This document shows, in pieces, positions 20,801 through 27,206 of a stretch of 36,968 bases of DNA (positions within the stretch are counted from its first letter, which is position 1; every line of letters begins with the position of its first letter). This stretch comes from a virus. Lineage: Duplodnaviria > Heunggongvirae > Uroviricota > Caudoviricetes. Where the stretch lies: positions 1-36,968 of the IMG/VR virus record IMGVR_UViG_2737471838_000003, one strand, 5' to 3'. A model generated the notes under the pieces. The model saw nothing but the letters and a program-made list of their open reading frames with translations. It had not been told where the DNA came from and made no database searches. A program made the position numbers and the translations under genes.

Positions 20801-20999
20801 TATGCCTCCTAACTACGAAAGGAAAAGTAAAATGTGCGGTGTATCAAAAAATTAATTTGGCGCGTGAATATAACCATTGAAACAGGTTGTTTCACGATCA
20901 TTTTTTGTTGCTTTTTTGCTCGCGCACATGGACATTTTTTATGCGTTTAGTTTCTAATCCAATAGTTGGTCGTTTTTTGATTTTGTTTTTTCAGGCAAC

Positions 21000-21019
21000 A
21001 AAAAACCCGCCGAAGCAGG
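21000..21019 (-). terminator. Rho-independent terminator for the hok-like transcript (minus strand: ccugc uucg gcggg then U6)
   Basis: 5-bp stem with a UUCG tetraloop and a U-run on the minus strand, about 90 nt downstream of the hok-like stop. Confidence 0.5.
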
Positions 21020-21109
21020 TTAAGTGCGGTTGCGTTGAAGTCTCCTAGCCAAAGAGTAGCGGTGACAACTCCCCGCCGATAATCTTAGTTGTTTAATTTC
21101 GTAAGCTAA

Positions 21110-21235
21110 CTAGGCTAAAAGATCTATGTTCCCTTGCTTGATGTGCAACTCGCAAGGCGAACCGCGAACCATCCAGACCAAAACCAGAATGGTGCAACAA
21201 ACCACCACCAGACAGAACACATAGTTCCTTCGCAT
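21110..21235 (-). CDS. Hok-family type I toxin-like small membrane peptide (41 aa); not in the ORF track (below the 60-aa cutoff)
   Basis: Manual minus-strand translation: MRRNYVFCLVVVCCTILVLVWMVRGSPCELHIKQGNIDLLA. Basic N-terminus, one TM helix, and a CELHIKQ motif close to E. coli HokA (…WMIRDSLCELHIKQ… as recalled); about 9 aa shorter than typical Hok. Confidence 0.6.
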   Translation of the reverse strand: MRRNYVFCLVVVCCTILVLVWMVRGSPCELHIKQGNIDLLA

Positions 21236-21452
21236 GTATGTTGATTTGAAATTTAGTGGGGAGACATTCCTGTAGGCAATCTTTGATGGAAACCAGTTAA
21301 TACTTTATAGTGATATCTCAGATAGTTAAACGCAAGTTAACTTTGTGATTGTTCATATACCCGCATTTTGTTATAACGAATACTATAGGCAATATGTACT
21401 AGACTCATATACAATGACTACATGAGAGCAGGAGAAAAATCTGGAGGTTACG

Positions 21453-21671
21453 ATGGCAAATTTTATACCACGCATTTTAGGACTGAAATCAGCCGAAAAG
21501 GAAATGCAACTTGCCGAGCGCATCGAAAAATCAGGCGCTACGGAAGTAGAAGTTGTTGGACGCGGTGGTGTGATAACTTCAAAACAAGCTCTCGCATCAT
21601 CTGAAACAGTTAAACTTATGAGATTTGAAGCGAAAAAAATAGTCGCTCAAACACCGACTAATAAAGAATAA
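21453..21671 (+). CDS. Hypothetical 72-aa soluble protein, first gene of a two-gene cassette of unknown function
   Basis: GGAGG SD before the ATG; AT-rich; its stop lies 2 nt before the ATG of the next gene. No recognisable domain. Confidence 0.55.
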   Translation: MANFIPRILGLKSAEKEMQLAERIEKSGATEVEVVGRGGVITSKQALASSETVKLMRFEAKKIVAQTPTNKE

Positions 21672-21673
21672 AT

Positions 21674-24742: not shown

Positions 24743-24779
24743 TCATTTTTCCTTTACAATTTTCCAGTTCTATTTTTAA

Positions 24780-25949
24780 CTAACCCACCTTTGTAGTATC
24801 TTGCCTTCTTGAGGATTTACTCTTAGACGTTAACCTAGATACCTTATTTGCTGAAATTGAAAGTAAACTAGCAATTTTTCTTACTGTAAATACTCTCTCA
24901 TCACAATTTCTAATTAATTTTGCTAATTTTTCTATTATTTGTTCTGGTTGATCAAACTTCTCTCCTTTAGATTCCCAAATAGACATCATAAGAAAAGTTG
25001 TATCAAATTTACCATTATTAAATAAAATAGAATGGCGAAGCGCACGCTCGCATATTTGTTCAATAAACGCACATGACAAGTCTTTTGAGAGAACAGCGGA
25101 GTCATATGCAACATCTAATGTTGGAAAATGCTGATTCAATAATCTTTCATATAGACGTTCTCTCACTTTTAAATCAGGTAAACCAATTTCGAGTCTGTAT
25201 GAAAATCTACGCCAAACCGCATTATCTAGTAAATTCTCGTGATTGCTGGCAGATATAAGTACAGTATGTTCAGGAAGATCATCAATGTTTTGTAACAATG
25301 CAACAACAACTCTTTTTAATTCACCCAATTCATGTTGATCATCTCTGGCTTTTGCCAAAGCATCAAGTTCGTCCAGAAATAGAACGCAAGGTTGATTGCT
25401 TGCATACTCAAAAAGAGTGCGTATATTTTTAGCTGTTGAACCTAAATATGACGATACCAACGCATCACACCGCGCAGTGAAAAGAGGTAATCTCAACTCA
25501 GATGCAATATGCTTAGCTGCAAGAGTTTTGCCACAACCTGGAGGACCAAAAAGTATCATTGAGGATGCAGCTTTTAATCCATATTTCTTCAGTTCATCTC
25601 TTCGTATTACTGATGTAATAAATTCATTAATTTTTTCATTAATCGAGTTATTCAAAATAGGTGGAGCTACGTTGATCTCAGGCTCTGTTTTATCTGCCAG
25701 ATGAAATTTTGTTTCATTATCAGTAGGAACTGAATATGCCTTTGTGGAGAGGCTATTTTGAGTAAAGTTTGCTTTCTGAAGCGAGAATGTAGTTTCCTGC
25801 TTCAAGAAGCTTCGTATTGTTTTCGCGAGTTCGCGCTCACCTTCCGCATCCATCTCTCTTGCAACTTTTGCTGCAATTCTCTGGAAGGTTATTTTATCGC
25901 CTATGACCCCTGACTTTATGAGGTCTACCAATAACTCGCCGTTGTTCAT
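24780..25949 (-). CDS. AAA+ ATPase, IetA-like
   Basis: 389 aa from MNNGELLVDLIKSG... (ATG at 25949); Walker A LFGPPGCGKT, Walker B VLFLDELD, second region of homology ...ISASNHENLLDNAVWRRF; AT-rich. Confidence 0.85.
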   Translation of the reverse strand: MNNGELLVDLIKSGVIGDKITFQRIAAKVAREMDAEGERELAKTIRSFLKQETTFSLQKANFTQNSLSTKAYSVPTDNETKFHLADKTEPEINVAPPILNNSINEKINEFITSVIRRDELKKYGLKAASSMILFGPPGCGKTLAAKHIASELRLPLFTARCDALVSSYLGSTAKNIRTLFEYASNQPCVLFLDELDALAKARDDQHELGELKRVVVALLQNIDDLPEHTVLISASNHENLLDNAVWRRFSYRLEIGLPDLKVRERLYERLLNQHFPTLDVAYDSAVLSKDLSCAFIEQICERALRHSILFNNGKFDTTFLMMSIWESKGEKFDQPEQIIEKLAKLIRNCDERVFTVRKIASLLSISANKVSRLTSKSKSSRRQDTTKVG

Positions 25950-26386
25950 GTGATACAAAAATCCCCTAACATAGTTGAAAACCGTGTGATAATGACACAA
26001 ATCCTGATTTTTTCAAAAATATCATTGTAAATATGGAACATCAATACTCACAAAGATACTCAGTTCTACTTACGTTGCTTTATCCATTCAAGTGCTTTCA
26101 ATACGGTTTCCATTTCCCCCCTTAAACTCTGTTACCAGCTCCCCGCCTGCTCCAGAAAATTTTGTGTATCTGGTATCAGCACCAGTTACGGCGGCATTCC
26201 TACACTACTGCGGTTATCGGTGGTGTCGGTCTTTCGGTCACCGCTTTGGAGACACAGACTTTTTCCTGCCAGCTCGGTGCAAGCCAATACTTTTTCCCTT
26301 CCCGGCTAAGTCGCCCGTACCGCAGCATGTTCTGAATTAGGTTGTGTATTTTTTGATAGTTACGCCAAGAGCATCAGCCATCTCGC

Positions 26387-26397
26387 GGGGGGGGGGG
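26387..26397. repeat. Homopolymeric G11 tract followed by gatcc
   Basis: Counted directly (ctcgc g11 atcccc); in the non-coding gap between the DnaC-like gene and the ATPase operon. Confidence 0.9.
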
Positions 26398-26459
26398 ATC
26401 CCCGTTCTCCAGCAGATACCTGATAGCGGCCTGTTGGTTTTCCTGTTCATACCTCTGAC

Positions 26460-27206
26460 CTACCTCACTGCGCCAGCCTGACCAACATTCGGGCGCCAGC
26501 TCTCCCAGTTAAAATTCACCCAGCGCCCGCCGTTCATGGTCATGCGATCCATAATTCGCTCGCCGAGCAATGTTTTCATGGCCTCATAGTTCAGGTTTGT
26601 CAGCATCCCCACGCTGCGCATCGACGCTGTCCGGCGATCAACAATCTGATGCAGCACCACCTGCTCGTTTTTTGTCTCGCGCTGAATGCCAATTTCATCA
26701 AGAACCAGCAGATCCACTTCGCACAGTTCCCGCAAAAATTTTTTGCCTGATTGCCCGTCGTCATAGCTGGCGTGTAGAGCACTCATGACATCAGCCACGG
26801 TAACCACAATCACTGTCTGGCCATCTTTCAGCAAGCGATTCCCGATAGCCGCCGCCAGATGGTTTTTTCCGGTACCAGGTTTTCCGCTGAACGCAAAATT
26901 TGTACACCCGGCCATCAGTTCATCAGCGATAGATTTCGCCTGGCTCAACGCGTATCGCTGACCGTCGTTCTGCACCAGGTAATTCGCAAACGAGCATTTA
27001 CAGTGCAACGGCTGGATGCCTGAGCGATTCAGAATTTTTTCCACCCGCAACTGGCGATTCAGGCGGTTGATCTCCTCGCTACGTTTCTGGCCTTCAGCAA
27101 GTTGCCACTCGCGCCACTCCGCTACCGTTCTGAATGGGGCGGTTACATGTGGCGGGGCTAGTCTGCGGATACGTTCAAGAACGCCGCCTGTCGCAATATT
27201 TTTCAT
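26460..27206 (-). CDS. DnaC-like replicative helicase loader (phage replication protein, YdaV-like)
   Basis: 248 aa; FSGKPGTGKNHLAAAIGNRL (Walker A), LLVLDEIG (Walker B), and overall collinearity with E. coli DnaC (MKNIATGG...RSGIQPLHCKCSFANY...). Confidence 0.9.
   Translation of the reverse strand: MKNIATGGVLERIRRLAPPHVTAPFRTVAEWREWQLAEGQKRSEEINRLNRQLRVEKILNRSGIQPLHCKCSFANYLVQNDGQRYALSQAKSIADELMAGCTNFAFSGKPGTGKNHLAAAIGNRLLKDGQTVIVVTVADVMSALHASYDDGQSGKKFLRELCEVDLLVLDEIGIQRETKNEQVVLHQIVDRRTASMRSVGMLTNLNYEAMKTLLGERIMDRMTMNGGRWVNFNWESWRPNVGQAGAVR

Follow-up and report, generated by a model that had tools for sequence, protein, structure and literature searches.

A Four-Gene Block Carrying IetAS in a Recurrent Cargo Slot of a Rac-Like Lambdoid Prophage

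The AT-Rich Region Contains an Imported Block of Four Genes

The subject of this report is an AT-rich region of a Rac-like lambdoid prophage that lies, in reverse orientation, in a 36,968-base stretch of the IMG/VR record IMGVR_UViG_2737471838_000003 (the window; all coordinates are window positions). A first-pass annotation, made from the sequence alone, had described positions 20850-26460 as an island of foreign cargo between the replication and nin genes. Foreign DNA is indeed present between ydaU/ydaV on one side and the nin-like genes (DUF1367/DUF1364/DUF1133-Q) on the other. However, the imported unit is narrower than proposed, extending from 21343 to 26040, and consists of two convergent gene pairs: ietA and ietS, which belong to the IetAS defense system, and two genes for proteins of 72 and 254 amino acids (aa) from families of unknown function. 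Their features, together with the putative regulatory sites, are as follows.

21343-26040, both strands: imported four-gene block, 36.0% G+C, colinear in five loci, coinciding with the G+C minimum of the window
21386-21415, plus strand: promoter-like site for the 72-aa/254-aa operon (TAGGCA-18-TACAAT), -10 kept in the L017 and L021 blocks; consensus match only
21453-21671, plus strand: 72-aa soluble partner protein with a conserved VEVVGRG motif (phrog_37504, E 1e-21)
21674-22438, plus strand: 254-aa membrane protein with about three N-terminal transmembrane (TM) helices, a conserved RLHRYDGQ loop and a C-terminal Sm/Hfq/WYL-like beta-barrel (phrog_3630)
22463-22484: hairpin terminator between the converging operons, 9-bp stem, T-run on the minus strand
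22487-24742, minus strand: ietS, S8 subtilase-family protease (toxin/effector), 751 aa; PADLOC IetS PDLC02197, E 1.2e-270, residues 1-745; Pfam Peptidase_S8
24780-25949, minus strand: ietA, AAA+ ATPase (antitoxin/regulator), 389 aa; PADLOC IetA PDLC02196, E 2.3e-131; Pfam AAA, E 2.1e-31
25989-26016, minus strand: promoter-like site for ietAS (TTGAAA-16-TGnCATTAT), inside the block, kept in the L017 and L021 blocks; consensus match only

Base counts gave 36.4% G+C across 20850-26050, against 49.1% on the nin/Q side (19089-20517) and 50.8% on the replication side (26460-28740), in agreement with the original impression of an AT-rich stretch between flanks of about 50%. When all 4.7-kb intervals of the window were compared (mean 48.1%, standard deviation 6.3%), the lowest G+C was found at 21351-26048 (36.0%), and the second-lowest interval not overlapping it had 44.1%. 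The G+C at third codon positions (GC3) is 0.26-0.28 in the four block genes and 0.48-0.61 in the backbone genes DUF1367, DUF1364, DUF1133, ydaV, ydaU and ydaT. Because G+C and GC3 both shift against the flanks, base composition and codon usage are each discontinuous here, and neither is uniform along the prophage.

The limits of the block were set by comparison with other loci. From 21343 to 26039 or 26043 the window is colinear, at 77-79% nucleotide (nt) identity, with blocks in five loci from other contexts: a Salmonella contig (L017), another enterobacterial chromosome (L018), two metagenomic contigs (L019 and L020) and Scandinavium (L021). In all five the homology starts and stops at identical window positions, and based on these common endpoints we take 21343-26040 to be the real transfer unit. 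Backbone homology to seven other prophage loci ends on the left at 20809 or 21038 (85-88% identity) and restarts on the right at 26478-26485, within the last codons of ydaV (91-97% identity). The region first described as one island is therefore a mosaic of a hok locus, the imported block, a short piece of unique DNA and a decayed gene. The three modules within it lie where they had been placed initially: hok at 21110-21235, the two-gene cassette at 21453-22438 on the plus strand and the ATPase-protease operon at 22487-25949 on the minus strand.

Terminal inverted repeats or other transposon ends were considered as an explanation for the sharp endpoints. The best pair, 21338-21361/26035-26058 (24 nt, 75% complementary), was one among many chance-level pairs, and since the other blocks do not share its outer half we rejected the reading of these sequences as transposon ends. 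Searches with the block gave no DNA match in the sequenced phage collection and a single one of 360 nt, to the AAA ATPase gene of a Dongshaea plasmid, in the plasmid collection.

The ATPase-Protease Operon Is an IetAS System

The first-pass annotation had recognized an ATPase-protease operon in the region, and the PADLOC and Pfam matches show that this is the already named IetAS system. The two genes lie side by side on one strand, the ATPase gene leading, and are separated by 37 nt. The start of ietA was taken as the ATG at 25949, which is the RefSeq start; the IetA hidden Markov model (HMM) aligns to residues 19-395 of a longer open reading frame (ORF) with a TTG start. The IetS catalytic triad D259/H289/S492 is intact (DSG at 259, HGN at 289, GTSLSTP at 490), and IetA has both a Walker A (GPPGCGKT at 135) and a Walker B motif (VLFLDE at 189).

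IetAS was first described as a plasmid-stabilizing toxin-antitoxin system in which the protease is the toxin and the ATPase the antitoxin (cited in PMC13069673). It defends against phage in a manner that requires the protease activity, and its anti-phage mechanism is still unknown (PMC13069673). In Bacillus, a homolog behaves as an abortive-infection system for which a single phage protein is the trigger (10.1101/2022.08.27.505566), and E. coli ietAS has served as an example in a discussion of systems that reside in integrated elements, prophages among them (10.1101/2022.08.21.504612). The window genes resemble these systems in adjacency and orientation, in their full-length PADLOC matches, in the intact triad and Walker motifs and in being prophage-borne. 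They differ in scoring below the NCBIfam cut-offs (given below) and in that a convergent two-gene cassette, which is outside the published definition, lies beside members of their clade. As these scores indicate, the window IetAS is a diverged subfamily. In ietHAS, an IetAS core has recruited an SNF2 helicase that is essential for defense and modulates toxicity (PMC13069673). That system shows that the core is able to gain an extra gene; the window locus, in contrast, has no helicase, and its extra genes encode the 72-aa and membrane Sm-like proteins on the opposite strand.

A more distant IetAS locus (45% identical; L055 5313-10083) adjoins genes for TniQ and Csy2/Csy3/Csy4, which suggests that it is cargo of a CRISPR-associated Tn7-like transposon.

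The 72-aa and 254-aa Proteins Form a Widespread Pair

The 254-aa gene starts 2 nt past the stop codon of the 72-aa gene, and the two would be translationally coupled. Both converge on ietS, and a strong hairpin follows the ietS stop codon. This hairpin, at 22463-22484, probably acts in both directions; all seven of the other blocks examined have a GC-rich hairpin of different sequence in the same convergent gap of 25-50 nt. The arrangement would thus be one of two convergent operons with separate putative promoters and a common hairpin terminator, expressed in the lysogen.

The 254-aa family is large, with 2,636 representatives at E<=1e-3 and 172 at E<=1e-30 in a library clustered at 50%, and its members are uniform in length (~250-300 aa). 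A 72-aa homolog is found immediately upstream of every closer 254-aa homolog. In the 254-aa protein, the distribution of positive charges suggests a cytoplasmic location for the invariant RLHRYDGQ loop and for the barrel, where the Sm/WYL-like domain probably oligomerizes or binds a ligand. A single-sequence AlphaFold2 model of the 72-aa protein had a pLDDT of 55.6 and was unusable. The small partner protein of Yersinia enterocolitica (L060 5754-5984) matches the N-terminal half of Pfam Hjc, an archaeal Holliday-junction resolvase, above the gathering score (E 1.4e-5); the match is absent in the window copy and in five other homologs and is too thin to build on.

Homologs of the pair with 47-51% identity occur without IetAS in several settings. 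Among these are a cluster seen on 841 contigs, from a common E. coli prophage in which it neighbors the integrase; the copy of Cronobacter phage phiES15, placed between integrase and attP; that of the P2-like phage SEN5, which follows gpA; and copies in a Plesiomonas lambdoid prophage and in many marine gammaproteobacteria. Because the pair is found alone in these classic moron positions of temperate phages, we consider it a separate module that would protect the lysogen. By its genomic position, the pair may act at the membrane, either in superinfection exclusion or in a pore-type abortive response. The phage lambda RexAB proteins and superinfection-exclusion membrane proteins are the functional analogs we propose. 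Like RexAB, the pair would be a lysogen-expressed cassette of two genes, one for a soluble and one for a polytopic membrane protein, in an accessory position in temperate phages. No sequence or fold relationship was found between the two systems, and RexB has no counterpart of the Sm/WYL-like domain.

The Two Pairs Travel Together in Different Elements

The four-gene convergent layout is not restricted to lambdoid prophages. It was found beside P4-type integrases and AlpA, in a Providencia integrase island, in a ParB/RepB-resolvase context, in Enterobacter bugandensis and Citrobacter youngae, and in a P2-like Yersinia enterocolitica prophage, where it is flanked by gpA, the replication gene, and by the portal gene. 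From block to block the four proteins have diverged in step, as can be seen from their percent protein identities to the window copies (in the order 72-aa/254-aa/IetS/IetA).

Salmonella block: 90/89/87/87
Scandinavium block: 89/89/85/82
Yersinia block: 58/63/63/55
Enterobacter block: 51/54/60/56
Providencia block: 53/52/59/55

The pair is beside every IetS homolog of at least 58% identity whose neighborhood could be checked; this was seen directly in 10 loci (L017-L023 and L058-L060), and co-occurrence is suggested also, by longest contigs of equal length among the homologs of both, in Rahnella (4,861,599), in Pectobacterium (4,801,510) and in contigs of 5,035, 5,422 and 5,197 bases. No pair was found, with an HMM built from an alignment, near IetS homologs at 57%, 49%, 45% and 44% identity.

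Such constancy raises the question of whether the four genes are one functional system, with the 72-aa and membrane Sm-like proteins as obligatory accessories (a sensor, a membrane effector or an extra regulator), comparable to the ietHAS helicase. This would account for a convergent layout kept from 90% down to ~51-63% protein identity in at least five kinds of host element (Rac-like prophage, P4-type integrase islands, P2-like prophage, ParB/RepB-resolvase element and Providencia integrase island), for the similar GC3 of all four genes and for the close association just described, and there is a precedent in the third, essential gene that IetAS has recruited elsewhere (PMC13069673). However, the pairs are convergent with separate putative promoters rather than one operon, and the pair homologs at 47-51% identity have no IetAS within 6-8 kb in many genomes and phages. 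Conversely, the 57%-identical IetS and the more distant IetAS loci lack the pair. In addition, the linked members look like a single clade, and an identical pattern would arise if the two had been joined once in an ancestor and then passed on together as a small block. We regard a single four-gene system as rather unlikely. Our reading is that the pair and IetAS are two modules, each able to stand alone, that were juxtaposed once and have been co-travelling since. Functional coupling of the two is possible but rather unlikely. In its most specific form, which we put forward tentatively and think improbable, the pair would be a new phage-borne immunity module that has turned into a functional partner of IetAS in an Enterobacterales clade, giving a four-gene variant whose membrane component senses infection or executes the shutdown of the cell.

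The Block Occupies a Recurrent Cargo Slot

Among 5,426 complete E. coli genomes, three (ZYB62, C41 and NRZ103545) carry the island, while 2,218 match some part of a 7.7-kb query that included the flanks. Both flanks were within joinable distance in only about one-tenth of a spread sample of genomes. In the relatives examined that keep ydaV, this gene is followed by a DUF1627 gene (ydaW), in all but one then by DUF977, and then by variable cargo. At least 10 different cargos, KAP and Sll1717 P-loop NTPases among them, were seen at the same junction in the loci inspected; they are listed below.

APEC O1: QueH, plus Doc on the nin side of hok
Five small hypothetical genes
L006 3030-4987: trio of ATPase, STAS-like and 172-aa genes
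S-adenosylmethionine methyltransferase and two further genes
L008 2690-5140: 816-aa P-loop NTPase
L045 1907-3976 and L009 6467-8023: Sll1717-family ATPases, two loci
Strain 2012C-4227: RosmerTA (RmrA, E 5.7e-107; RmrT, E 1.4e-18)
Two hypothetical genes
Sakai Sp10: 463-aa and 329-aa pair (L048 5377-7757) and a DNA methylase
K-12 Qin: relBE

The known defense or toxin-antitoxin genes among these cargos are IetAS, RosmerTA, Doc and RelBE. Most of the others had no PADLOC match above a weak level; of these, the ATPase/STAS-like trio, the 816-aa NTPase, the Sll1717 ATPases and the Sp10 pair look like candidate defense systems. The variety of cargos between the same flanks supports the initial proposal of a recurrent moron or defense hotspot in Rac-like prophages.

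These data also bear on the possibility that the AT-rich stretch is ancestral Rac-type backbone lost elsewhere, or that its composition is local noise. The window does have other AT-rich parts, at 14001-16000, 17501-19000 and 28501-31500. Nevertheless, far from being present in all Rac-like prophages, the island is in three genomes; the relatives hold ydaW (DUF1627), most of them also DUF977, plus other cargo in its place; the block recurs in other genera, in unrelated elements; and its GC3 of 0.26-0.28 stands apart from the ~0.5 of the backbone. The distribution of the island and the occurrence of the block elsewhere refute this explanation, to which we give practically no weight.

The parallel originally drawn to trkG, which had been placed at the equivalent position after ydaV in K-12 Rac, did not hold. 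The order there is ydaV-ydaW-rzpR/rzoR-trkG, and because trkG follows the lysis-gene remnants rzpR/rzoR it is placed past a deletion that removed the nin-Q-lysis region. A better parallel in K-12 is offered by Qin, where relBE directly precedes hokD. As in the window, toxin-antitoxin cargo is directly upstream of hok and is followed by nin-like and Q genes; the cargo differs, however, and Qin has lost its replication genes.

The slot also resembles the P2 and P4 hotspots, in which conserved phage genes flank rapidly exchanged, often AT-rich cargo that includes known defense systems. The P2 defense hotspot adjoins the portal gene (Vassallo et al. 2022), and the four-gene block of the window is also next to the portal gene in the P2-like Yersinia prophage. 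The window slot differs in that its hosts are lambdoid prophages of the Rac/Qin type and its flanks are the replication genes on one side and hok/nin on the other. In the literature that could be searched, we found no description of the lambdoid slot upstream of hok. It behaves like the P2/P4 hotspots and can be mined for cargos such as the KAP and Sll1717 NTPases, the ATPase and STAS trio and the Sp10 two-gene set.

Proposed Origin and Role of the Block

Based on the above, we consider it probable that the 4.7-kb block sits in a recurrent cargo slot of Rac/Qin-type prophages, moves as a unit between unrelated mobile elements and combines IetAS with a second, independent pair that would protect the lysogen. 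The AT-rich stretch is then a compound accessory region, in a slot that has the replication module on one side and the hok-DUF1367 (nin-like) module on the other. The block probably arrived by recombination, replacing the usual ydaW (DUF1627)-DUF977-cargo segment; what was left is a decayed helix-turn-helix (HTH) gene at one border and, at the opposite one, an allelic hok that lacks its 5' part. If expressed in the lysogen from their own promoters, the genes could act against superinfecting phage. As judged from published homologs, IetA would hold IetS in check until triggered by a phage protein; the released protease would then damage the infected cell, with the incoming phage failing to spread and the lysogen being sacrificed.

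Several observations weigh against this interpretation. The NCBIfam models IteA and IteS are the top matches of the two proteins but fall below the equivalog cut-offs (389 vs. 510 bits and 796 vs. 900 bits), which are curation thresholds and not biological criteria; IetA and IetS have generic names in RefSeq for this reason. The promoters and terminators are all consensus matches, and promoter-like sites are fewer in the region (11) than in shuffled sequence (18.7). Searches of Pfam, NCBIfam and PADLOC with the 72-aa and 254-aa proteins gave nothing beyond a chance-level match to HEC-01B (E 0.008), and the defensive label of the pair comes from its genomic position. Finally, the tight and ancient linkage of the pair to IetAS could mean that the modules are not independent.

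A different role for the block would be mainly that of an addiction or stabilization device, with IetAS acting as a toxin-antitoxin system for post-segregational killing rather than in defense. The original description of IetAS as a plasmid-stabilizing system (cited in PMC13069673) is in keeping with such a role, as are the classical toxin-antitoxin genes hok, Doc and relBE that the slot also gathers and the one block in a ParB/RepB context. Homologous IetAS systems, however, protect against phages by abortive infection, and one of the sites where the block recurs is a P2 locus that has been described as a defense hotspot. Moreover, addiction and defense are not exclusive of each other. We think it quite unlikely that addiction is the main role, and favor protection of the lysogen.

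That prophage hotspots carry defense systems, and that E. coli prophages carry IetAS, is established knowledge. The locus reported here is real and well bounded but mostly ordinary; only the companion pair and its deep linkage to an IetAS clade could prove new. The pair, being widespread, unannotated, repeatedly found in moron positions and co-travelling with one IetAS clade, is the only part with real potential for discovery. Since the mechanism of IetAS is still unknown, the natural four-gene variant also offers a cheap experimental handle. For annotation, a vague "island" can now be replaced by a 4.7-kb transferable defense block, a resident hok anchor and a decayed HTH gene.

The Borders of the Slot

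The features outside the block, from left to right, are as follows.

19918-20517, minus strand: DUF1367 gene (Pfam DUF1367, E 2.2e-96), in backbone 85-88% identical to related prophages; first conserved nin-side gene and left hotspot anchor
20588-20800, minus strand: 70-aa hypothetical backbone gene (phrog_1813, E 7e-29), at the same place in relatives
21000-21342, minus strand: resident hok locus with backbone-conserved 3' end; leader cut by the block at 21343
21004-21021, minus strand: hok 3' terminator, a terminator-like hairpin; 21000-21038 is conserved in relatives
21110-21235, minus strand: hok coding sequence, 41 aa, ending at an in-frame TAG (Pfam HOK_GEF, E 2.7e-12; phrog_251)
26041-26122: unique DNA, 82 nt
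26123-26454, minus strand: decayed winged-HTH gene, 76% identical to the Qin-like 70-aa HTH gene, 52% G+C
26387-26397: G11 tract (C11 on the coding strand) within the decayed HTH gene, ~440 bp upstream of ietA
26460-27206, minus strand: ydaV, DnaC/IstB-like replication ATPase (Pfam IstB_IS21), 96% identical to relatives from 26485; right hotspot anchor

The hok gene had been listed as one of the imported cargo modules, and this assignment needs to be changed. A hok locus with the conserved 3' end and terminator is at the same position in most relatives (hokD in several, a hok in APEC O1), and the conserved piece at 21000-21038 is the terminator at the 3' end of the hok transcript. The hok of the window is therefore not cargo but the left anchor of the slot, present as a resident, allelic and truncated copy. 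Positions 21039-21201 are 85% identical over 163 nt to an unannotated remnant in O157 Sakai Sp10 and in 172 other genomes. The in-frame TAG, which replaces the ...AYE... through which relatives read on and leaves a peptide of 41 aa versus ~50 aa at full length, is common to the window and the Sp10 remnant (L048 ~5001-5162), implying that the truncation predates the arrival of the block. As in other hok/sok type I loci, the peptide is of the Hok/Gef family with a TM segment and a conserved Cys-Glu motif, and the 3' untranslated region and terminator are conserved. It differs in its length and in its upstream region, where only ~108 nt of native sequence separate the hok ATG from the imported block. 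Neither a Sok nor a mok element was detected at this hok, and Rfam gave no Sok/hok RNA match at the gathering score or at E<=1, a search for which the existence of a suitable Rfam model is unconfirmed. The window copy may be inactive.

On the right, the first-pass annotation had noted about 450 bp of degenerate non-coding DNA with a G11 tract. The tract is present and there is no intact ORF in 26001-26459, but much of this stretch is a decayed gene of backbone type. Read from 26454 to 26123 on the minus strand, it gives a small winged-helix protein, …QQAAIRYLLENGD-PPP-REMADALGVTIKK…LIQNMLRYGRLSREGKKYWLAPSWQEK…, homologous to an intact 70-aa HTH protein encoded after the replication gene in Qin-like prophages (76% DNA identity, including the downstream DNA). 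Three-frame translation against the intact homolog placed two breaks in the gene, a frameshift in the poly-C run and one in an A6 run. The poly-G tract has 11 residues in the window, 10 in ZYB62 and 13 in NRZ103545, which are otherwise near-identical; this variation could be due to slippage in vivo or to sequencing error. We also considered 26001-26459 as a remnant of ydaW (DUF1627) or DUF977, and rejected this when tblastn with three DUF1627 proteins and one DUF977 protein returned nothing meaningful.

Prophage Setting and Other Features of the Window

The order of genes on the minus strand is cro, ydaT, ydaU, ydaV, the island, the 70-aa gene, DUF1367, DUF1364 and DUF1133 (Q-like), followed by a tRNA and the lysis genes. 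To the right of these are a cI-like repressor, kilR, recET, ralR/RalA, xis and int. From 12233 on, the window is 99.99% identical to E. coli ZYB62, with one mismatch and the one-base poly-G difference. Positions 1-5299 match ZYB62 ~5.3 kb further along, and 5300-12232 have no match to it, identity outside the latter stretch being 99.99-100%; the tail-fiber/terminase side is therefore arranged differently in the two.

The AT-rich patches at 14001-16000, 17501-19000 and 28501-31500 are separate from the region described above. In the first (36-42% G+C), plus-strand DUF1398 and Bor genes lie between the terminase and lysis genes, and this is a better counterpart of the trkG position in K-12 Rac. 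Between the Q-like gene and the holins, DNA of 40-44% G+C holds a tRNA-Arg (17687-17762) and the gene for an HTH regulator (18116-18859; a 298-aa ORF from a TTG start, called as 248 aa by RefSeq), and this stretch looks like another moron-type insertion. Lastly, the RalA antitoxin small RNA (Rfam RF02694, 218 bits) is at 35234-35412 on the minus strand, beside ralR (~35040-35234). The ZYB62 annotation lists ralR as a pseudogene that contains an internal stop, making this a type I toxin-antitoxin locus with a broken toxin.

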